This document shows positions 1 through 57,654 of a DNA stretch of 64,000 bases, one piece after another. Each line of letters starts with the position of its first letter. Position 1 is the stretch's first letter. The notes beneath the pieces were generated by a model. It did not search any database and had not been told where the DNA came from. It was given only the letters and a program-made list of their open reading frames with translations. This stretch comes from Chiloscyllium plagiosum (taxonomy: Eukaryota). The position numbers were made by a program, and so were the translations under genes. The stretch is taken from the NCBI RefSeq assembly GCF_004010195.1, contig NC_057751.1, positions 14,986,373 through 15,050,372 on the forward strand, written 5' to 3'.

Positions 1-189
1 ACCGGCCAGTGCAGCGGACAGCTGGAACTGACAACCGGAAGTGGCAGGTACAAATCACTATAAATGCCGGAGGAAACATCACAGAAGCGCTTCACAGGAG
101 GCTCCCAAGCACTGAGGATGTCACCTCGACAGGGGATGAAACGTCTGCAACACAAATTCCCAGCTCGGCGAACAGAACCACAACAACAA
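1..189 (+). mobile_element. Short Penelope-like repeat (family B) with minimal hammerhead motif at 109-148
   Basis: Near-identical to the arms at 23851-24222; gca-CTGAGGA-stem II-GAAAC-GTC-tgc. Confidence 0.7.
109..148 (+). ncRNA. Minimal type I hammerhead ribozyme motif (sense in an IKBKB intron)
   Basis: GCA/TGC helix I, CTGAGGA core, gtc-a-cct-cgac-agg-g-gat helix II, GAAA, palindromic ACGT helix III, GTC cleavage triplet. Confidence 0.65.
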
Positions 190-1344
190 TGGTAATTGCC
201 AGTAATTCAACAAACATAATTCCAATTAAAGTCAAGGAGAAGTGATTCGATTCCTTATTATTAGACATTGTCATTGCTTTTTTGAGTGTCTTCATACCAC
301 ACTTAGTCAAATGCTGACCTGATGTCAAGGGTAGTCACTCTCACTCCATGTCTAGAATTTAGCTCTTTTGTCCATATTTCGACCTATCGTGGAGTGAAGG
401 ATGGATATGAGTGACTGAACTGTCATTTAACTGCCCAGTCTGAAAAGCTTTCTAACATACTCCTATGTTACATTTCATTCTTCCTCGGTGCTATTATCCC
501 CAGTTTGGTGTTCTCGACTTATTTTCCCACATTGCCAATATTTTGTATGAACAGTTAGCAGAAATGATGGATTGGGGAAGAGAAAATCAAATGTTTTTAA
601 GGCCATGATGAATTTTCTTTCCTGTCAGCTGTTGGTAGTATTATCTTGGATATTTATTTCAATTTCCAGGTTAATCTAAGAGTGTTGGCAATCTTACTCT
701 CGACTCTAAGCCCTCTGATGTTCGCTCCCAGTTCCCAGGCACTGTGTGCTAACTTAGAGATAAATCTTCGCCTGCAGTTTTTGTGCAGAAACAATGAGTA
801 CCTCAGGGCTGCATCCTGTTTATAACAAGAATGTTATTAACATTGGACTTTTATTCATAAATGTTTTGGAAAACATAATGCCACTCAGTAAAGTAAAAGA
901 AAAAGCAATCGGTGTGTGGATGTTATAGGCTAAATGTGGGGGATTTCAGGCTAGGGGGATTAAAACAGAGAAATAAGATTTGATGCAAGAGAGAAAAGTT
1001 TTTATGCAGAAGTTTGTGAGGCTGCGAAATAGGTCTGCTATTGAAGCTGCCGTCAATAAACATTCAGAAATATGATATTGGAGAAAAAAGCGGATAAAGG
1101 GATATGGGAACACTGAAATGACATGGATTAGTTGTTCCTATGTTGAAAGTGATAAAGTTATACTCTTTTTAATCACACTTTCAGGGTCACTGGATGACCT
1201 CAAGGCTGCGATTTGAGAGTTTTCTCTGCAGATCTGAGTTGTTTTCACCACTGTAAAGTCAAAGATGTCAAGTCACCACGATTAAAGTCAAAGATGTGTA
1301 CTGCACAGAAACCCTTTGGCCCAACTCATTCATGCCAACCATAT

Positions 1345-2445
1345 TTCATTGAACATAGAACATTTCAGTGCAATACAGACCTTGTGGCTCTTGATGCTGC
1401 ACCGACTTGTGGAACCAATCTGAACCTCATCTAACCTACATGATTCCATTCTCATCCATATGCCTATCCAATGACCATTTAAATGCCCTTAAGTTGGCGA
1501 GTCTAATACCATTGCAGGCAGTGCATTCCACGCCCCTACTACTCTCTGAGTAAAGAAACTACCTCTGACATATGTCCTATATCTATCACCCCCTCAATTT
1601 AAAGCTATGTTCCCTTCCGTTAATCATCGCCATCTGAGGAAAAAGGTTCTCACTGTCCAACTTATCTAACCCTCTCATTATCTTATATGTCTCAATTAAG
1701 TCACCTCTCAACCTTCTCTCTAACGAAAACAGCCTCAAATCCCTCAGCTTTTCCTCGTAAGGCCTTCCCTCCATGCCAGGCAACATCCTAGTAATCTGCA
1801 ATCATTGTTTTTACCTGACATCCTAGTGAGTCTCCTCTGAATCTTTTCCAAAGCTTCCACATCCTTCCTATAATGTGGTGACCAGAATTGTACACAATAC
1901 TCCAAATGTGGTCGCAACAGAGTGATGTACAGCTGCAGCATGATCTCATGATTCCGAAACTCAATCCATCTACCAATAAAAGCTAACACATCACATGCTT
2001 TTTTCACGACCCAGTCAACCTGGGTGGCAACTTTCAGGGATCTATGTACCTGGGCACAGAGATCTCTCTGCTCATCTACACTACCAAGAATCTTCGTCAT
2101 TATTCACAACTCTACTGACCTTACTGTAATCCGCAAATTTATTCACCCATCCTTCTATGCCCTTATCCAGGTCATTTATAAAAATGACAAACAACAGGGG
2201 ACCCGAAACATCCTTGCGGTACCCCATAGTAAATGAACTCCAGGATGAATATTTCTCCTCAGCCACCACCCTCTGTCTTCTTTTGGCTAGCCAATTTCTG
2301 ATCCAAACCGCTAAATCACCCTCAATTCCATGCCTCCTTATTTTGTGCCATAGCCTAATCAAACAGCTCACTGAAGTCCATATATACCACATCAACTGCA
2401 TTACTCTCATCTACCTGTTTGGTCACCTTCTCAAAAATTTTCTGA
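1345..2445 (-). mobile_element. CR1-type LINE 3' fragment (RT C-terminus and 3' UTR)
   Basis: Minus-strand ORFs with GPLLFVIFINDLD, KFADYSK, RPHLEYCVQFWSP, LRGDLIETYKIM; frameshifted. Confidence 0.9.
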
Positions 2446-2500
2446 GCTGAACAAGTCCTATTTGTCTGTGTTTGGCTATATCCTTCTTAAACCTTTCCTG

Positions 2501-2729
2501 GGTAAAAACAATGACTGCAGATGCTGGAAACCAGATTCTGGATTAGTGGTGCTGGAAGAGCACAGCAGTTCAGGCAGCATCCGAGGAACAGTAAAATCGA
2601 CGTTTCGGGCAAAAGCCCTTCATCAGGATGCGGTATTCCTGACGAAGTGCTTTTGCCCGAAACATCGATTTTACTGCTCCTCGGATGCTGCCTGAACTGC
2701 TGTGCTCTTCCAGCACCACTAATCCAGAA
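2501..2729. mobile_element. Inverted pair of short Penelope-like elements (family A) with hammerhead motifs
   Basis: Arms approx. 2536-2628 and 2637-2729 are reverse complements; CTGATGA-a-gggc-tttt-gccc-GAAAC-GTC on the minus strand; aacctttcc duplicated at 2490-2498 and 2728-2736. Confidence 0.75.
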
Positions 2730-3670
2730 CCTTTCCACATACCTGTCCAAATGTCTTTTAATTGTTGTAACTGTACCTGCCTCTACCACTTCTTCAGGGA
2801 GCTCGTTCCATATATGCACCACTTTCTGTGTGAAAAAGCTGCCCCTCAGGTCCTTGTTAAATCTTTCTCCTCTCATCCTAAATCCATGCCCTTTCGGTTT
2901 GGATTCCCCTATGCTGGGGAAAAGACCTTGGCTATTCACCTCATCTGTGCCCCTCATGATTTTACAAACCTCAATATGGTCTTCAAAAATTCAATCAAAT
3001 TTGTGAGACACAATATCCCCTGCACAAAGCCACACTGACCATCCCTTTTCAAATGCATGTAGATCCTTTCTCTCAGATACCCCTCCAACAACTTACCCAT
3101 CACTGACATGGGGCTCACCACTCAGTTGTTCCCTGACTTTTTCTAAAGGCCTGTCTTCAATAATGGCATAACATTAGCCACCCTCCAGCGTTCTGGCACC
3201 CCACCCATGGCTATCGATGATAAAAATATCTCCGCTTAGGGGCCTTGCTTATTCTTCCCTAGCTTCCCGTTATGACCTAGGATACACTTGATCAGGTCTC
3301 AGGGATTTATCGACCTTCATGTGTTTTATGACTTCCAGCACCTTTTCTTCTGTGATGTGGACTCTTCTTTTTGAAACAGCATTTTTAATTCCCCAAATCC
3401 TTCGCTTTCAAGTCTCTGTCCAAGGTAAATACGGATGAAAAATATTTGTTTAGGATGTCACCCATCTCCTCTGGTTCCACACATCGATGGCTTTGCTGAT
3501 CTTTAAGGGGCCCTATCCTCTCCTGAATTACTCTTTTGCCTTTAATATACTTGGATAATCTTTTCAATTCTCCTTTGCCCTGTCTGCCAAAGATACTGCA
3601 AGTCCCTTTTTTGCTCTCCTGAAATCCCTCTTAAGTGTACTCCTACACCCTGTATAATCCTCAAGCAGTT
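2730..3670 (-). mobile_element. CR1 LINE fragments (rearranged)
   Basis: GHGFRMRGERFNKDLRGSFFTQKVVHIWNELPEEVVEAG and IGPLKDQQ..EMGDILNKYFSSVFT motifs. Confidence 0.85.
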
Positions 3671-3934
3671 CACTTGATGTAATCATTGGAGACCATCCAC
3701 TCATCTTGCCTCAGCTAGATTTTGTAAAACGTTAGCCTAGGTGGTACCAAATCATCTGCTTTTCCTCATGTTCAACTCCCTGTCCAATGCACACTTAAAA
3801 TTAATTGTGGAATCAACTTCCACCACCTTTTCAGGTAGAATATTTCAAATGCTAACAATTCTGAGTGAAAACCTTTCTCCTCATCTCCTCTGTTGATCTT
3901 ACTTTTACCACTGATTTTAATTTTTAATTTTACT

Positions 3935-5480
3935 GATGCCAGTCTTCAGCCACTTTGATGCACTCCACGTGATATCAAGAAGCAGTTGGAGGCACTGGAT
4001 ACTGCAAAGGCTGTGGGCCCTGACAACATTCTGGCAATAGTACTGAAGACTTGTGCTCCAGAAATTGCCACACCCCTAACCAATCTGTTCCAATACAGCT
4101 ACAACACTGTCATTTATGTGACAGTGTGGAAAACTGCCCAGCTATGTCCAGAAAAGCAGGATAAATCCAACCCAGAAATTGTTGCTCCATCAGTCTGCTC
4201 TCACACATCAGGAAAGTATGGTGTCATCAACAGGACCTGACCTCTCAGCTCGTGACCTCATTATAGTCTTGGTTCAAACATGGATAAGAGAGCTGAATTC
4301 CAGAGGTAAGGTGAGAGCAGCAGCACTTGACGTCAAGGCCATATTTGACAGAGAGAGATATTAGGGAGTCCCAGCAAAACTGATATCAATGGGAATGAGG
4401 GGGGAAACTCTCTGCTGGTTCCAGTCGTACCGAGCACATAGCAAGATGGTTGTGATTGTTAGAGGTCAGTCATTCCAGCTGCAGGGCATTTCTCCATGAG
4501 TTCTTTGGGAGGGTGTACCAGGCCCAACTATCTGCAGCTGCTTATTCAATGACCTTCCCTAAAGTATGGATGTTCACCGATTGCGCAATATTCAGCATGA
4601 TTCGCAACTCCTCAGATACAGAAGCAGTGCATGTTCAAATGCAACAAAACCTAGATAATAGCCCGGCTTGGCTCGCAAGTGACAAGTAGTATTCATGCTG
4701 CACAAATGCAAGGCAATAACCATCTCCAGTCAGAAAAAATCTAACCACTGCTACTTGACATTCAGTGGTGCTACCATCACTGAATTCCTTGCTATCAATA
4801 TCCTGGGGGTTACCATTGTCTAGTAATTTAACCAGATTTGCCATATAAATAGAGTCCGCTATAAATAGATTTGCCATATAAATAAATAGGAGCAGGTCTG
4901 CTGCTGGAAATCCTGGAGCGAGTAACTCACCATCTGACTCCCCAAAACATGTGCCACGGAGATGGTGGACAAGTCAGAAGTGTGACAGAAGACTCCCCAC
5001 TTGCCTGGATGAGTGCAGCTCCAAACAACATTTATGAAGATCAGCACTATCCAGGACAAAGGCGCCCACTTGATCCACAAGCATTTAGTCCGTCCACTAC
5101 CGATGCTCAATTCACACTGCTGCTACTATCTACAAGATATACTGCAGAAATTTGCCAAAGATCCTTAGACAGCATCTTCCAAGCCCTCAGCCGTATCCAT
5201 TTCGAGGAAGAAAGGCAACAGATACATAGGAACACCACCCCCTGCAAATTCCCCTGCAAGTTCCCCTCCGAGCCATTCACCATCCTGCTTTGGAAATGTA
5301 TCGTTGTTTCTTCACTGTTGCTGGGTTAAAATCCTGGAACTTCCTCCCTAACACCACTGTGTGGGAGTCCCTCCACTATGTGGACTGCAGTGGTTCAAGA
5401 AGCAGCTAACCCACCTTCTCAAGGGCAACTAGGGATAAGCACTAAAGATGGCTAGCCCATGTCCGATAAGTGAACAAAAT
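3935..5480 (+). mobile_element. Second LINE family (CR1/L2 clade) 3' portion, degraded
   Basis: KAVGPDNI..LKTCAPEIATPL and ALDVKAIFDR RT motifs; 3' tail aagggcaactagggat shared with other copies and with the second SINE family. Confidence 0.8.
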
Positions 5481-5732
5481 TCTCACATCATCTTGAAATC
5501 CTCTAAACTTTGTCCACTCCAAGCAGAGGTTTCAAAACTTGCCCAATCTCTTCTCAGGACTGAGGTCTCTCATTCTTGGGAATATCTTGGCAAACCTCCA
5601 AACTAAGGCCTTCACATCTTTACTGAAGTGTGGCCTGGAATTGTCCACAATACACCAGCTGAGGCCTGTGATCTATCAAGTTTGCTTTTGTTGACCTTGC
5701 AGATTGGGCTAACTCCATTTTAATTTATCCAG

Positions 5733-23316: not shown

Positions 23317-23468
23317 GATGAGTTTACTGCGCTACAACAGCAATCTGTCCAAACATAAGACAACCATGCTGTCCAGGTGCCAGCAGTTGAAAGCAAAGCT
23401 GGATTTCTTTCGAGTCAGTATCCAGATTGACCTGGAGAAATACAGTGAACAGATGGAATTTGGAATCA
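23317..23468 (+). CDS. IKBKB: IKK-beta exon (approx. 14)
   Basis: ctccag|..|gtgagt; [50 protein letters not shown]. Confidence 0.96.
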
Positions 23469-23711
23469 GTGAGTATTCAGGTGTCAGGCATCGAACAGGG
23501 CCAATGAGTCGATAGCCAGGAAACATTATTGAGGTCCTAGTCCGAAGAGCCAGGGCTGGCTCCAATCTCTGCCTCACCCTGCAACACTCCCTGGACACGT
23601 ACACTGCTGACAATATTGGCAAAATATCAGGGAACAGAAAGTTCTGGCAATTTGCAGCAGGTCACTCAGCCCCCGAGAGGGGACAGTGGTTGGGGGGTGG
23701 TGTGGAGGGGA

Positions 23712-23745
23712 TAGAGAGAGAGAGAGGGGGGGAGAGAGAGAGAGA
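23712..23745. repeat. (GA)n microsatellite
   Basis: agagagagagagagggggggagagagagagaga. Confidence 0.85.
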
Positions 23746-23831
23746 TGCACTATTGTGTTGGTTCCAGTCAGACCCCTTAAAACCAACCTTTCCTCTCCCT
23801 CTCTGTGCATGTCTGCTATATCTTCAAAGAT

Positions 23832-24223
23832 TGGGAGAAGATTTGTAGCTCGGGTGCTCATTGTTGTGGTTCTGTTAGCCGAGCTGGGAATTTGTGTTGC
23901 AGACGTTTCGTCCCCTGTCTAGGTGACATCCTCAGTGCTTGGGAGCCTCCTGTGAAGCGCTTCTGTGATGTTTCCTCCAGCATTTATAGTGATTTGTATC
24001 TGCCGCTTTCGGTTGTCAGTTCCAGCTGTCCGCTGCAGTATACTGGCCACTGCAGCGGACAGCTGGAACTGACAACCGGAAGCGGCAGATACAAATCACT
24101 ATAAATGCTGGAGGAAACATCACAGAAGTGCTTCACAGGAGGCTCCCAAGCACTGAGGATGTCACCTAGACAGGGGACGAAACGCCTGCAACACAAATTC
24201 CCAGCTAGGTGAACAGAAGCACA
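23832..24223. mobile_element. Inverted pair of Penelope-like family B elements (approx. 175-bp arms, 9-nt spacer) with hammerhead motifs
   Basis: approx. 23865-24039 is the reverse complement of 24049-24222; flanking atatct(t/c)caaaga at 23818-23830 and 24224-24236. Confidence 0.8.
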
Positions 24224-25047
24224 ATATCTCCAAAGAATTAAAGCATGGTTACAGCACAGTACTGAAGGACCATATTTAGCCCTTAATGTTTGAGCTGGCT
24301 CTCTGTAAGAACACCTCACCAAGCCCCAAGCATGTCCCACAGATCTTTTTCCAATTATCTCATTCCCTTTTGAAAGGCCTGATTGAAGCTGCCTCTACCA
24401 CAACCTAGGTAGTGAATTCCAGATAATTTTTCTTCACCTCACCTTTAGTTCTTTTGCCAATCACCGTAAATTGTTATCTTGCTTAACCCTTCTGCCAATA
24501 TGAACAGATTCTCTCTGTCTACTTTGTTCAGGCTGCTCATGATTTTGCACACTCCTTTCGTATTGCTCCCTCAGCTTTATCTTGAAGGAGAGTGATCCTG
24601 ATTCAAAAACATATTCACGATATTTTCCTGTTATGGTCCCTGGATTATTTCAACATCAATCAGTTAATCTTTAATATATTTCAAACGCATTCTATTGACT
24701 ATTGCAAAAAGCACTAAATATGTACAGATTGGTGTTTACACCTCCAGATCATAATAAAGACTTTATCTTAAATCTGGAGGTCCAATGAGAGACTCTTTTT
24801 GCTCCAATGGCTAGCTAAGAAATAGCTGACATGGATTTAGAAGAGGAGAAGTGCTGACTTCAGGAAGCATGAACATATGGCACTATTCTTCATGATATAG
24901 TTTATTTAGATTTTCAGGAAGTTTTTTGGCAAAGGTCCGAGACGGAGTTGTCCAATTAAATGGAATGATATTGAAACCTGTCACTGACTGCAGTGGGGAC
25001 AAAGCTTTGTTTCTATCTATGCTGACCCAATTATCATGCTCTTCCAG

Positions 25048-25109
25048 CCTCTGAGAAAATGATCACTGCCTGGAAAGAAATGCAACTGAAAGCAGAAGGT
25101 TGCAGAAGA
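25048..25109 (+). CDS. IKBKB: IKK-beta exon (approx. 15)
   Basis: cttccag|..|gtgagt; SEKMITAWKEMQLKAEGCRR; phase 1 to phase 0 fits the neighbours. Confidence 0.9.
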
Positions 25110-25569
25110 GTGAGTATTCTCGCCACCTGACTGTCTGTCTCCCTGTCCATGCTTGGGATCTGGGCTCTTCTGATGCTTAGCTGGGATCACCATCTTCGAT
25201 TGGTGCCTTTCTATCCACTTTCTATTAAGTGGAGTGGAGAAGTGATGTGGTGGGAGTATTGGGAGTGGACAAGGTCCATGTTTGAGGGATATCAAGGTTT
25301 ACATAATCGAAACATAAGAAATAGGATCAGGTGTAGGTCATTCAGCCTTTCAAACCTCCCTGCCAATCAACAAAATTATGGCCAATTTACTCCAGGTCTC
25401 GATTCCTCTATGATGCCACACAGAATTACAAAAATCTATCTACCTCCTTTTTAAGTACTTTCAGCGATCTTGCCTTCACAACTCTGTGGGGTACAGAATT
25501 TCAGACATTCATTATCCTCGAAGAGAAGAAATTCCTTTGCAACCCAATTTTAAATAAGAGTTACAGAAT

Positions 25570-43914: not shown

Positions 43915-44044
43915 ATCCTGATGAAGGGCTTTTGCCCGAAACGTCGATTTCGAAGCTCCTTGGATGCTGCCTGAACTGCTGTGCTCTTCCAGCACCACTA
44001 ATCCAGAATCTGGTTTCCAGCATCTGCAGTCATTGTTTTTACCT
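43915..44044 (+). mobile_element. Penelope-like family A element with intact minimal hammerhead (43915-43948)
   Basis: atc-CTGATGA-a-gggc-tttt-gccc-GAAAC-GTC-gat; 3' end catctgcagtcattgtttttacct as in the 2501 copy. Confidence 0.75.
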
Positions 44045-51179: not shown

Positions 51180-52444
51180 ACAACCACTGCAAAAGTGCGT
51201 CCAAGTCGAATAACCCCTGTACTGATTCTGACCAGAAACCAACTTGGGCCCAGGCTTTTAGTCTCAGCTGTCAAACAGGGTAAGAAGAATGGCTTCTTAA
51301 ACTGTGTTGTCCAAGGCCCCTTATGAGGGAAAAATGACCCTTTGAACTATCCATCGGTTCTACCTACCCACAGTCCTTACCACCGCAAAAACGCTTATCA
51401 AAATCAATGGTAAGAATTACACTTCTTCTGATGAGATGCCAATGAGGAGACATGCAGAACCATACAAGAAAGCTGCATTCGGACCTCATACAGCTATTTC
51501 CCCTTGTCATTGAGCCACACAAATGTTGAAAGTTCTAGTTCTTTGTTGACATAAGTTGGGCTTATAAAACTAGTTGTTGCATTTTGTGATTTGTGCATGG
51601 AGCTGGTCTGGTTGCCGGATGTTGTTAACTCATGTGACCTCAGCCGTAGTGTTGCATGTCAGTCACTTGCATTTTCAGCTACAGTAGTTAGTGGATCAAA
51701 TGCATTTATGTTGACAACCAGTGGCGTGGGACTGTACTTTGAGAACCACTGCTCTATAAGGACTTTCTGGGGAGGAAATCACATTAAATTTCAGGGTGGT
51801 GCAGATTATCTAGGCCTTTGGATTAAACAAAGCCACTTTAGTAGTTAAAGGATAGTTCAGAATATTGTTTAAAGTAGATTGTCAAATTAAAGTAAAAGAT
51901 TTGTAGATACATAAGCAATGGCAAAACTGTGGAAAAGGAATTGCCTCTCAAGGAATAAAATAGCATTGGAAAACATTCCTGTTGTGGCAAAGTAATGAAG
52001 TAAAGATTAGATTCAAAGAAGCAGCTTTCAATGTTACCAAAAAGGGTGTTGTGAGCCAGAGGATTTTAAAAATCAAGAAAACCTGACCAAAAAAATGAGA
52101 TAATGAGGATGAAAGAACAGGAGGAAGCCAGCAAGAAAATAGATAGTCAAAGCTTTTCTGAGAACTTATAAGAAAGGAATTAGTGGAATTAAAATTGACC
52201 CATGGAGGCAAAGGCAGGAGAAATTACAAGTGAAAATAACAATATGTCAGATATTAGGTCAAGAAATAATTCTTTATAATGTCATAATGGATACGCTAAG
52301 AAAAATAATCATTATTTGGGAACTGAACATTTAATGACAGTAAGGAATTAAATTCAAATTGTGAAGTTGTCATAAGGTTTAAAAAGAGGAGCTGCAAAAT
52401 TATTAGAAGCATTGGTTTTGATTTTCCAGTATTGTTAGATTTTA

Positions 52445-52574
52445 GGAGAAAGTGAGGACTGCAGATGCTGGAGATGTGCATTGAGAGTGTGGTGCTGGAA
52501 AAGCACAGCAGGTCAGGTCGCATCAGAGGAGCAGGAGAATCGATGTTTCGGGCATAAGCCCTTCAACAGGAATC
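52445..52574 (-). mobile_element. Penelope-like family A-related element, hammerhead core mutated
   Basis: Minus strand reads ttc-CTGTTGA-agggcttatgccc-GAAAC-ATC-gatt. Confidence 0.7.
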
Positions 52575-53609
52575 AGATATTAGGACTGTCCCCATGGATT
52601 GGCAAGTAGTAAATATGACTCTGCTATTCAGGAAGGGCAAGAGAGAGAAAACTTCAAATTAAAGGCAAACCAGGTGTATTAACTGTCGCTCCAAATTGAT
52701 CCATTGACATTTTAGATCCAGAGACAAATCAAAAATGATCAATAACTGATAGATTAAGAGTTAAGGAGACTCAAAGGAATTTTAGTGTGATGTTCATGTG
52801 CACAAATAAAAGTTAGTTGACAGATTTTAGAATTAATTTAACAACATTAATAGAATCATTCTCTAAAGTTAGCATAATGAGGAATAGTAGTAAAGACCTC
52901 ACTCAAAGTATTGTATTCAATTTTGGGCCCTGTACCTCAGGCAAGATTTAAACTCTGTGGAATTACCTCAAATTTACAGCGCAGTATTTTTCAGGTCATT
53001 AAACCCAATTGGTTCACATTGATGTTTCTGCTCCACATCACCCTTCTTCCACCTGTCAACTTATCAGTGTAATTTTCTATTCCTTTCTCCCTCACATATG
53101 TGATTGGCTTTCTCTCAAACATATCTCTGCTATTCAACTTAATAATTTCTTGTGATTTCAAGTTTCACCTCTGAGTACATAAGTTTTTCCTGAATCTCTT
53201 ATTGGATTTAAATTAGTAACAAGTTGGTTGATCCAATAAGGTTGCTTCAGGGAATCTATTGTGCCTATTGGGCAACTCAGAACAAGAAGGCATGACCTTA
53301 AAATTACAGCATTTGGATGGGAAATCGGGTTATATGAAGTGTTGAATAAGTCTGCAGTTTTGTTCGCCTTTTTGAAATTCAATTGTAATTTTCAACACAG
53401 AAATTGGAGTTTTCTTTTGTAAGCCAAGGTTTTCAAGTGATATAAAACAAACGGGAAAATGAGTTGAGGTACAGTTCAGACATGATCCAAATTAATGGTG
53501 GGACAGGCTTGAAGGACTGATGACCTCCTTCTGCTCCTGTGATGCTCCTTTCCTTTTTAAATTAAATTATTTTGACATAGCTCTGTTACTGTATTACCAG
53601 GAAGCAAAG

Positions 53610-53694: not shown

Positions 53695-54495
53695 GTGAGG
53701 TTTTACCTTTTTGTTTCCAGTGAAGTGCTTTCCATCTTCCTTTTGTGTTATTCTCATCTGAGAGGAAACAAAGTTGAAAGAAGTGTTTCTGCATGCAATG
53801 ATTCTTGCCCTTTTGCCCATTCTATGCAATGGCTTAAGGTAGTCTGAAAGAACAAATTTAAACAAGAAATAACTTTTCCTAGCTACATTTGAAATAGAGT
53901 AATTGTGCAGGTACAGTATATTTGTAGAAACATGGGAAAGTAACCAATTGGAATCTAATTGAGAGCTTCATGGTGTTGTTATAGATACAATGATTGGACA
54001 CCCTATTAATACTAGGCTGAAATTCAGTCGAGAACTAAGTGCAAGTAATTGGGTGAGTGAAGATTCATATTCAGTAATTACTCCCCCAGTGTTGAATATT
54101 TCACAATATCTAATTAATAACAAATATGGTTTCAATTTTTATAATCTGATTCTGATTTTTTCGTTAGTTTAGTACTATTCCTAAAAATGACGGTTGCATA
54201 GGATGAAAGAGTAAAGGTGCTAATTGTTTTATCATTAATTATCCTGAATAGGGTTTGTTGTACAGATGGTGAGTGATCTTTGGGAGGTTTGTGATAAGAC
54301 TCTTAACACACTTGGAGGATATCTTGAAACATAACTATTTAAACAATTGTTTAACTGAGAATATGATAACCTTGAAACAAATGTTGGGCACTTTGCAATT
54401 TGACATTGAAAATTTTGCTCCTCTTTCTCCTCAGATGAGAGTCAAATTTACCCAGTGTTGTTCTATGCCTGCAAAACTGAGCTCAGTAAAGAAGG

Positions 54496-54720
54496 AGAAA
54501 GTGAGGACTGCAGATGCTAGAGATCAGAGCTTAAAAATGTGTTGCTAGAAAAGCGCAGCAGGTCAAGCAGCATCCATGGAACAGGAGAATCAACGTTTTG
54601 GGTATAAGCCCTTCTTCAGGGCTTATTCCTGAAGAAGGGGTTATGCCCGAAACGTCGATTCTCCTGTTCCTTTGATGCTGCCTGACCTGCTGCGCTTTTC
54701 CAGCAACACATTTTTAAGCT
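54496..54720. mobile_element. Inverted pair of Penelope-like family A-related elements with a 16-bp target-site duplication, in an ENKD1 intron
   Basis: approx. 54527-54620 is the reverse complement of 54628-54721; agctcagtaaagaagg at 54480-54495 and 54717-54732; + strand CTGAAGA..GAAAC-GTC. Confidence 0.8.
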
Positions 54721-54897
54721 CAGTAAAGAAGGGAAAAGATATTGATGGTTTTCATTTCTTGTAATTGTTCAGTTACAATTTTGGAAGCTGACACGATCAA
54801 TTCAGCATTAAGATCCTCATGGCTGAATGATCAATTTACAGGTTGTATATACTGACAAATATGTCTAATTGTTTTTGTCTTCTGTTTTTCACTGCAG

Positions 54898-55122
54898 CTC
54901 GGGGTCGGCTAGAAGGGAATAGCTTAAAACTAGACTTCCTTTTGGGACCATTAGCCCCTGATCCCACCTTGTACCCCTCATGCTACAGTGCCCGCCCATC
55001 GCGGCCAGGCCCACGTGTGCGTTCAAATGCCAGAGAGATCCTGGAGAGAGGGCAAAAGGGCTCTGTCGGCATGCTGCTGCAGCTGGAAGGAGCATCGTTA
55101 TATCGACCGTTGTCACCAAAAA
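54898..55122 (+). CDS. ENKD1: ENKD1 coding exon 2
   Basis: ctgcag|..|gtaaat; ARGRLEGNSLKLDFLLGPLAPDPTLYPSCYSARPSRPGPRVRSNAREILERGQKGSVGMLLQLEGASLYRPLSPK. Confidence 0.93.
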
Positions 55123-56654
55123 GTAAATGATCTTTGTAGTGTGTTGTTGTTTCTGTGGAATGACTTTGCTGATGAGTAAGCATCTGTCAGGATTGGAATC
55201 TTGCTAAGCCAAAGCTAAAATTAAAATTCTGGAACTAGGTGGAGATACTGCATTGATGTGTTATATTTCGATGGTAAGCTCTACATTTCGTTTGAGACTC
55301 TTGGCAGCCATTGTTCAGTTGATTTGACTAGCTTCACAACAGGCTACCTAGACCCTAACCACTGAAATTCCCTCTTTAAACCTAATTTTCCCTTCTCTCA
55401 ATACTGATCATGTTCACTGAGGTGAGTAAAAGATGGTGTTGACTGATTCTCAGTTGAATGGAATAAAAGACTACCTTTGGCAAATGAGGAGCCAGTTTTG
55501 CAGTGATGATTTCAAGGTATTTTTGGTTTTGACTATTGTGCCTTGACTCTGATACCAATTGAAAACAATATATCTCTCTTTTACTGACCTCATTGATCAT
55601 GATCAGTACTGGGAGAAGGGAAAATTAGGTTTAAAGAGGGAATATCAGTGGTTAGGATTGAGGTAGCCTGTTGTGAAGCTAGTCAAATCGGGGGTGCACA
55701 AACAGCCAGAATTGGAGGAGCACACAAATAAGGAGCGATGAAATGATGTATTTTGCGAGGAATATTGAGGAAGGACAATATAAGCTAAAGATTGCAGTTT
55801 TAAGGGAACTGTAGGAGCAGAAAGAGTGGAAATCTGTGCAGATATCACTGAAGGTGGTGTGGCAGGTTGAAAAAGTGGTACAGAGGTGTTGGGCTTTATA
55901 AAGAGAGGCATCGAACACAATGGAAAAGAAGTTCATGGAACTTATTCAAAACAGAGTTTGAACTTCGAAAGGAATGCTGTGAGGAGAATAGAATATCAAA
56001 GTAGGTATGTTTTGCGAAGTTTTAAGGGCACTGAAAAAACCATATCTGGAGTATTGTATGTAGTCGTCTTATTTAAGAAGGGACATAATTGTTTTATAAG
56101 CAATTCAGAGAAGATCCATTTAATTTATTTCTGCTTATGAGGACAAGTTTGAGGGGTTGGATCTTTATCCACTGGAATTTAGACGAATGAGGAGAGATCC
56201 TGAGTGAACTTGACAGGGTGGATGCTAAAAGGATAATTTGAAAGGATAATTGCAAGAAAGACTAGAACGAAGGGACACAATAAGGAGTCACATATTTCTG
56301 ACAGATGAGAATATTTTTATATTAGAGGATTGTGAATCTGTGGAATTCTCTTCTCTCGAGTGTGGCGAAGGCAGAAATACTGCAGTTTTAGAACTGAGGG
56401 ACATGGAATTCTTTTTTGTTCAGAATCTAAGAGTATTGGGGTTGACAGGAAATTGGAGTTGAGGCATTGCTGAGATCATGCATGATCTTAACGAATGGAG
56501 AACCAGCCTCCAGGAACTAAGCAGTTTACTCTTCCTTAATTATAGTTTCTGTCATTTTGTTTGAAAGGTCACTAGCCCTTAACATGAAGATATGTACAAA
56601 CTTACATGAAAAATGGTCACAATCAACATTTAGTTTGTTAATTTGATGATGTGC

Positions 56655-56815
56655 AGATGTTGGTTTTGGACTGGGGTGGATACAGTCAGAAGTCACATGA
56701 CACCAGTTTATAGTCCAACGAAGTGACTTCACCTGATGAAGGAGCAGCACTCTACAAGCTTGTGATTTCAAATAAACCAGTTGAACTCTGACTTGGTATT
56801 GTGTGACTTCTGACG
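56655..56815. mobile_element. Third Penelope-like short repeat (family C), degenerate hammerhead, partly inverted
   Basis: tcac-CTGATGA-a-ggag-cagca-ctct-acaa-gctt-gtga; gtcagaagtcaca and tgtgacttctgac are inverted; related fragment at 57939-58022. Confidence 0.55.
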
Positions 56816-56928
56816 TTGTTAATTTGATGTCATGAACATCAGTAGACCTCATAATGCTTTTTTTTCCTCATTTTTCCAGATATTCTGGACTCAGACTTCA
56901 ATTCACAGGAATCTTGTTTCTGTTTTAG

Positions 56929-57101
56929 AGAAAGAATTGAAAGATCATGAAAAGGAGAATGTGAGGCGCATACGGGAAATTCAGAAGAAATGCAGGGAGA
57001 AGGACCAAGAGCGAGAACTGAGTGGCCCCAAACCTGTTAAAGCGCTGTGGAAGTCCCAGAAATATGAATCCATTCCTTCAAAAGTGATGGCACAGTTACA
57101 G
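56929..57101 (+). CDS. ENKD1: ENKD1 coding exon 3
   Basis: gttttag|..|gtagat; KELKDHEKENVRRIREIQKKCREKDQERELSGPKPVKALWKSQKYESIPSKVMAQLQ. Confidence 0.94.
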
Positions 57102-57654
57102 GTAGATTTGGGCGAGCAATGAAGACAATACTGTGTTGTTAGCAAAATATTGGGATGGTTTTCTCATGACTTCAGGACAAAAGCATGAGATAGTTAGGAC
57201 TAACTTGCAAAACTGTTTTCTGTATGGAACACTGCTTATTTTCAGCCAGAATTATGAACGTGCCTCTCAACTTGGTTGCAATACTTCTGTGGCTAAATAG
57301 ACTCATTATTACAATTCACTCAAGAGGAGTGGCTCCTTGAGTACAGTTAAAAAGAACATCTGGAGTGTTTAGTGGAGAAATTGGATAACACAGTTCTATT
57401 TTGAAAAGAAAATTCAGTAAAATCTGTAAATACAGAGCAGATAAGGCTGTATTACTTGAGGAACAGAAGTTGAAATGTGTTTAGGTTCTAAGATCCTTTT
57501 ATCATAATTGTAAGAGGTGAAAAGTTGATTGATTGACCCAGTTTTTCACAAATGCTGCTTGACTCCTGAGGACTGTATTTTGTTACATTTGCAGATTTCC
57601 ACTACCTGCAGGATTTTGCAGATGTTTTGTAGTTTCTTTTAGTGTGCTTGTTAA

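Follow-up and report, generated by a model that had tools for sequence, protein, structure and literature searches.

Insertions of Penelope-like elements bear a characteristic signature, namely an inverted 5'-truncated copy, a one-sided tail of 30-40 bp, and target-site duplications of 8-10 bp (Arkhipova et al., 2013, PMC3846280; Craig et al., 2021, PMC8557442). A tail of 30-40 bp is also reported by Frangieh et al. (2024, PMC11167929). Members of the Penelope/Poseidon clade are described as differing from Neptune and Nematis by the absence of an extra Zn-finger-like motif between the reverse transcriptase and the endonuclease (PMC8557442). In the anole Poseidon element PAc, stem II of the hammerhead contains the start of the ORF. 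The enzyme cuts both strands and extends them, the tail lies between two start sites of reverse transcription, and cleavage by the ribozyme depends on the protein (PMC11167929). In the minimal hammerheads of metazoans, stem II is preceded by an extra base and helix III is palindromic. They also occur as pairs on opposite strands at distances of 100-700 bp, and when such a motif was assayed alone in vitro, it did not cleave (Cervera and de la Pena, 2014, PMC4209133). Non-LTR retrozymes have been described as units arranged head to tail in tandem, with both of their hammerheads on the same strand (bioRxiv 10.64898/2026.07.22.740005). Heavy editing was reported for lizard Penelope and for a palindromic Xenopus repeat (Harbinger), and about 200,000 hyper-edited sites for the elephant shark (Porath et al., 2017, PMC5625713), while inverted repeats of fly Penelope yield siRNA (PMC3681739).

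Here, we describe a palindrome in an intron of the IKBKB gene of Chiloscyllium plagiosum. The window, i.e., the whole stretch of DNA analysed, comprises 64,000 nucleotides of contig NC_057751.1. We consider it highly probable that the locus holds one short insertion of an abundant Penelope-like retroelement, in which two 5'-truncated 3' ends lie head to head within a 13-bp duplication, likely as the result of two reverse transcription events primed at staggered nicks. The insertion is most likely a tolerated passenger, whose predicted hairpin would keep the hammerhead unfolded on either strand. The features discussed below are the following:

1-190, + strand: third copy of the same family, 93-96% alike, lying in sense orientation in an intron further upstream in IKBKB; the window starts within this copy
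23317-23468, + strand: upstream IKBKB exon, residues about 456-505 of shark protein P0003
23818-23830, + strand: left copy of the target-site duplication, 13 bp, atatcttcaaaga
23831-23863, - strand: one-sided 33-nt tail of the inverted copy, between the left arm and the duplication, continuing the putative ORF-start frame of the element
23864-24039, - strand: left arm, the 3' end (pLTR) of the Penelope-like element, inverted and 5'-truncated, with 2 private changes
23899-23938, - strand: minimal type I hammerhead motif, antisense to IKBKB, ending GTC-tgc, with GUC and the palindromic ACGU intact
24040-24048, + strand: spacer of 9 nt, by which the sense copy reaches further upstream into the element
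24049-24224, + strand: right arm, tail-less 3' end of the element in sense orientation, with 5 private changes
24150-24189, + strand: minimal hammerhead motif, sense to IKBKB, ending GCC-tgc, with U16.1 changed to C at 24185
24224-24236, + strand: right copy of the target-site duplication, atatctccaaaga, its first base common to the element
25048-25110, + strand: downstream IKBKB exon, residues about 506-526 of P0003

Comparison with described systems

The shark insertion shares with the published Penelope/Poseidon unit the head-to-head inverted 5'-truncated copy, the one-sided tail, the duplication, and a pLTR that would contain the first ORF codons (Arkhipova et al., 2013, PMC3846280; Craig et al., 2021, PMC8557442). 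It differs from this unit in its shark host and in the fact that both copies are stubs of about 185-210 nt, which yields a nearly pure palindrome. Also, its duplication is longer than in the rotifer examples (13 bp compared with 8-10 bp; PMC3846280, PMC8557442).

The layout resembles that of PAc (Frangieh et al., 2024, PMC11167929). In both elements, the target is AT-rich and two end points bound the tail in an A/C-rich stretch; the putative ORF of the shark element would start at stem II, as does that of PAc. The cut site lies 28 nt after the ATG in the shark element and 26 nt after it in PAc. The end points are located about 66 and 99 nt into the putative ORF in the shark element, compared with 111-118 nt for the preferred site of PAc (PMC11167929).

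Features common to the shark motifs and the min-HHR of Cervera and de la Pena (2014, PMC4209133) are the CUGAnGA core, the extra base before G10.1, the G10.1-C11.1 pair, the long stem II, the palindromic positions 15.2-16.2 without loop 3 (the motif has no helix III loop here either), and the occurrence in opposite-strand pairs 100-700 bp apart. Stem I has 3 bp in the shark motif, as compared with 4-5 bp in Schistosoma (PMC4209133), and stem II contains an internal A.G mismatch. Sharks are not named in the searched parts of the text and supplement of that paper. A non-LTR retrozyme was rejected as a candidate: the locus has no tandem, and its two motifs are on opposite strands.

Every feature of the insertion is already published, as is the build of the palindrome, which is common in this genome. 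This shark Penelope family with its hammerhead may be undescribed in the literature searched, which misses most subscription papers.

Host gene

The location in an IKBKB intron, proposed in the original prediction, is confirmed by the flanking exons. The exon next to the insertion on its upstream side shares 96% identity with shark proteins that bear the name IKK beta, and 19 exon-like matches of shark protein P0003 were found on the + strand between 5725 and 37149. The host intron spans 23469-25047 (1579 nt). The element starts 362 nt after the donor, and the palindrome is 362 and about 820 nt away from the two splice sites. Residues 1-64 of P0003 are absent from the window; bases 1-5724 are therefore also intron. 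In run X7, the kind of which is not on record, the depth is ~110 on the downstream exon and 0-20 across most of the intron. This profile looks like that of RNA with the intron removed.

Identity of the element

Both arms represent the pLTR end of the element, in which the ORF end is followed by the hammerhead motif and a putative start of the ORF. The right arm encodes the last residues of the endonuclease-side ORF end and then this putative start. Its translation gives a 43-residue peptide, which is 84% identical to part of bamboo-shark protein P0122. Of 150 relatives listed for P0122, eight were scanned for Pfam domains; RVT_1 was detected in all eight and GIY-YIG in five, in two of them above the Pfam cut-off. 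The arm peptide and P0122 itself had no Pfam match, and no body of the element ORF was found in the window.

The ATG at 24159 marks the start of stem II in the sense copy. The frame that begins at this ATG and runs through the tail aligns weakly to the N-terminus of the 832-residue protein P0130, with 40% identity over 40 columns. The E-value is 9e-4 against 500 nt but only 0.2 against the whole window, and there were three further weak matches. By eye, the linker between the reverse transcriptase and the endonuclease of P0122 and P0130 contains no cysteine pair, and Penelope/Poseidon is a candidate clade.

Taken indirectly through the relatives of P0122, the arm peptide points to a Penelope-like element whose ORF would encode a reverse transcriptase with a C-terminal GIY-YIG endonuclease. 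Together with the insertion signature, these data bear out the Penelope-like origin that had been proposed from the letters. The last about 100 residues of P0123, a predicted bamboo-shark isoform with a 5'-nucleotidase domain, correspond to the ORF end of this element. This end of P0123 is a predicted exonisation of the family as a last exon.

Structure of the palindrome

The original prediction of two arms of about 175 bp around a 9-nt spacer, with flanks resembling a target-site duplication, agrees well with the measured layout. The two arms are 176 nt each, 96% complementary with seven mismatches, and 9 nt apart. The copies of the duplication in the window match at 12 of 13 bp. At the sole mismatch site, 24230, the single-copy contigs of both other runs that cover the right copy read T.

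The insertion is asymmetric, a feature that had been overlooked: only the left arm carries an extension, the 33-nt tail. Contigs of the family continue past 24224 into letters that match this tail. The nucleotide T24039 is common to both arms, which overlap by 1 nt. Loose ends before 24039 were found in all four runs, and their letters encode the HIDLDP stretch that precedes the arm peptide in P0122. The spacer is element sequence, since the sense copy starts at 24039-24040.

Four of the five right-arm changes and the mismatch in the duplication crowd into 46 nt at the base of the hairpin (24185-24230). This cluster is unexplained and could be due to local error-prone repair, a divergent haplotype, or an error of the assembly consensus.

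Insertion mechanism

The geometry of the insertion suggests the following course of events. The GIY-YIG endonuclease of the element would make a staggered cut whose two nicks lie 13 nt apart. At the bottom nick, copying would be primed from the inner start site of reverse transcription, giving the right arm, which has no tail. The top nick would prime copying from the outer start site, 33 nt further 3', giving the left arm with its tail. Both copies would stop after about 185-210 nt and join head to head through the 1-nt overlap. After insertion, the arms would have drifted apart at 7 of 176 sites, the GCC change among them. A second priming event on RNA is needed because the tail could not be copied from a tail-less cDNA; the dual priming as such is inferred from geometry.

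Alternatively, the same element may have been inserted with its mirror half formed mainly by fold-back self-priming of one cDNA, or by priming on an antisense template (Arkhipova et al.), and with the tail added in a separate short event. Self-priming of this kind has been proposed (PMC3846280), and the spacer has the orientation that fold-back of a bottom-strand cDNA would leave. The arms also share rarer states of the family, namely T at the positions that match 24109 and 24096, where family depth is mostly C (75-83% and 56-65%, respectively). These shared states fit one source RNA and fit equally well fold-back copying or later conversion from arm to arm. However, the overlap at the apex is only 1 nt, the tail of the left arm would still need an RNA-templated event at the other nick, and the anole enzyme extends both strands in vitro (PMC11167929). 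This route may account for the arm body, but we rate it as rather unlikely. Two reverse transcription events at staggered nicks remain our preferred explanation.

Abundance, age and related copies

The family is abundant. In three runs, 4486, 8966, and 5711 contigs were placed on 24025-25150, in addition to 235 RNA reads from run X21. The summed depth is 1e5-1e6 on the arm versus 5-10 on the unique flank, which is not a copy number. In each run, 15-21 contigs depart at 24224 into unlike flanks. Many copies of the family end at 24224, since the loose ends at this position enter either tail-like letters or unlike flanks.

Two single-copy contigs start inside the element and cross the right flank. 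One is from run X4 (organism label A) and covers 24195-25150. The other, from run X6 (organism label B), covers 24202-25150 and has 24 other letters in 953. The divergence of the right flank between labels A and B is 2.5%. The right junction is present in both runs, so the insertion is older than the split of organism labels A and B, as shown for this junction.

The search for inverted repeats of at least 40 nt with arms within 600 nt of each other revealed four in the window. In three of these long palindromes, hammerhead-type motifs are combined with a duplication and with a tail of about 31-34 nt on one side. Besides the palindrome studied here, these are 2533-2732 and 54527-54721, which belong to a second hammerhead-bearing family. 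The stretches 2490-2736, inside an IKBKB intron, and 54480-54732 hold the second-family palindromes. Their arms are 96 and 94 nt long with spacers of 8 and 7 nt, and at most a few bases separate the apex from the hammerhead core. Each has a duplication of 9-11 bp and a left-arm tail of 31-34 nt, and the tail-less end shows microhomology of about 5 nt.

The second family is also present as single copies with a tail at 43915-44043 (+) and 52444-52576 (-); they start 2-6 bases before the hammerhead core, and the hammerhead of the copy at 43918 is intact. The fourth inverted repeat, 55321-55689, has arms of 113 nt (92%) and a 143-nt spacer. It has no hammerhead match, no clear duplication, and no other copy in the window, and is perhaps a small DNA-transposon derivative. 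Exon-like ORFs at about 54830-57120 (+) presumably resemble an ENKD1-type gene.

Hammerhead motifs and the GCC change

Hammerhead positions are given in the numbering in which cleavage requires U16.1 (taken partly from a figure legend). The CUGAnGA...GAAA core, a stem II closed by G10.1-C11.1 after one extra base, and stem I are present in both arms as well as in the third copy (109-148). The NUH triplet and the palindromic ACGU are intact in the antisense copy and in 109-148 but broken in the sense copy 24150-24189, which reads GCC and ACGC. The two minimal hammerheads, antisense with GTC and sense with GCC, were thus found exactly where they had been predicted.

A descriptor scan of the window gave five matches to the minimal hammerhead, four of them with an intact triplet; it missed worn copies near 2639, 52573, 54619, and 54629. 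Intact matches occurred in none of 100 block shuffles of the window. The scan with Rfam hammerhead models, proposed as a check in the original prediction, was run as well, and no model matched at gathering score in the window or at E<=10 in 23700-24400. Rfam as a whole gave no match at gathering score. The 27 Rfam matches obtained at E<=10, all under gathering score, were discarded as an effect of the palindrome; the best of them were generic hairpin models of microRNA precursors and snoRNAs.

Position 17 (24186) is T, giving a GUU triplet, in 19-27% of family contig depth. The variation of the family at the triplet obeys the NUH rule, since position 17 varies while 16.1 is T in >99% of depth.

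The suggestion that the sense-strand ribozyme is disabled holds with regard to the cut site: GCC removes U16.1, so the sense copy should not be cut. It does not hold for the remainder of the motif. The catalytic core and stem II are unchanged, and the GCC copy could, in a dimer, serve as the enzyme half for an intact partner, with three of four helix III pairs.

A further reading is that the sense ribozyme would have been harmful to the IKBKB pre-mRNA, so that selection favoured GCC. C at 24185 is indeed rare at an invariant position, since T makes up 99.8, 99.5, and 99.7% of the contig depth of the family at this site, leaving 0.2-0.5% that is not T; 109 of 112 RNA reads have T as well. Within IKBKB, one of three sense motifs and both antisense motifs are intact, which is the direction expected under such selection, and each of the two IKBKB palindromes has its damage in the sense motif (24153 and 2639). 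However, the orientation difference has a Fisher p of 0.4.

The claim that the sense copy was specially disabled is not supported. When polarised against the family and copy 1-190, the seven arm differences fall into five on the right arm and two on the left (p = 0.45), and three of the seven are of CpG type. GCC is one of the five private changes of the right arm, and the chance that one of five changes falls in the 12-16-base core is 30-38%. The third copy carries an intact sense motif with GUC (109-148) in the same IKBKB pre-mRNA, and the motif is buried in the predicted hairpin on both strands. Single minimal hammerheads are inert in vitro, and the anole ribozyme needs its protein (PMC4209133, PMC11167929). 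Among the literature matches listed, no paper on point was found for selection against sense-oriented intronic hammerheads. Selection for GCC therefore appears to us quite improbable, and the change is better placed with the other differences by which the arms of a passenger insertion would have drifted apart.

Predicted RNA hairpin

A long dsRNA hairpin formed by the IKBKB pre-mRNA, as originally proposed, is supported as a prediction. The + strand is predicted to fold with 136 uninterrupted pairs, including two G-U pairs, at -353 kcal/mol. When the whole intron is folded, pairing of the motif with the left arm has a mean probability of 0.97. The pair probability of hammerhead stem II in this context is 1e-17 or lower on both strands and also for a chain ending at 24189. 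The models thus predict that the hairpin buries the hammerhead motif on either strand. Without the left arm, the predicted probability of stem II is about 5e-4, and for copy 109-148 it is 1e-5 to 7e-4; such low values would be in line with protein-assisted folding. During transcription, the left arm is predicted to be made first and to pair with the emerging right arm, giving a duplex of about 175 bp that would leave with the excised intron.

By analogy, a long hairpin with a short loop is a likely ADAR substrate. Like the lizard, Xenopus, and fly repeat hairpins (PMC5625713, PMC3681739), this repeat palindrome is complete in itself, has a short loop, and lies within a transcript. Those hairpins are known to be edited or diced, whereas the shark hairpin is a product of predicted folding.

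In RNA run X21, none of the 235 placed reads lies on unique intron, and 188 of them are only 90-95% alike. A>G places number 5 of 44 in X21 versus 2 of 32 and 2 of 47 in the DNA runs, which is too few for a conclusion and comes from other copies. No pile-up of RNA ends and no strand-change joints were seen in X21, a library unsuited to show ribozyme cleavage. The X21 reads of the family over 24025-24252 show a strand bias of about 4-8 to 1 across most of the arm, the direction of which depends on the kit.

Co-option of the hairpin as regulatory dsRNA of IKBKB, acting through editing-linked retention, splicing, or small RNA, is very unlikely. The 136 uninterrupted pairs, the right junction kept in two organism labels, the heavy editing of lizard Penelope repeats and the extensive hyper-editing in the elephant shark (PMC5625713), and the siRNA from fly Penelope inverted repeats (PMC3681739) speak in its favour. 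Against this, no compensating change accompanies the differences between the arms, which affect 7 of 176 sites and exceed the 2.5% flank divergence between A and B; the distances of the palindrome to the splice sites are 362 and about 820 nt; and the same build occurs three times in 64 kb. Nothing points to a host role of the insertion, and the copy would have drifted after insertion.

The palindrome is confirmed as a real feature of the sequence, and its origin as an assembly or library fold-back artefact is scarcely credible: the apex and the left junction are absent among the read and contig pieces listed, so that an artefact is ruled out only indirectly, and no strand-change joint is listed either, but the arms differ at seven sites with changes on both of them, the target duplication and the one-sided tail coincide with the end points of the element itself, the window holds two palindromes of another family with the same build, and the right junction was recovered from independent runs.

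Implications

The single locus matters little in itself. It shows the Penelope insertion signature in a clean and datable form. The asymmetry of the insertion fits the in vitro result of 2024, according to which priming by the enzyme takes place on both strands and at two sites of the RNA (PMC11167929). A wider idea, which we regard as unlikely, is that head-to-head palindromes with silenced ribozymes are the form best tolerated in introns, number in the thousands, and make up the main endogenous dsRNA load of the shark transcriptome. They would then be the equivalent of inverted Alu repeats, formed in a single step when a dimeric enzyme primes both nicks, and the IKBKB pre-mRNA would carry two of them. 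If such palindromes are enriched in shark introns and heavily edited, they would provide a large natural set for the study of self-dsRNA handling in vertebrates and of element integration.
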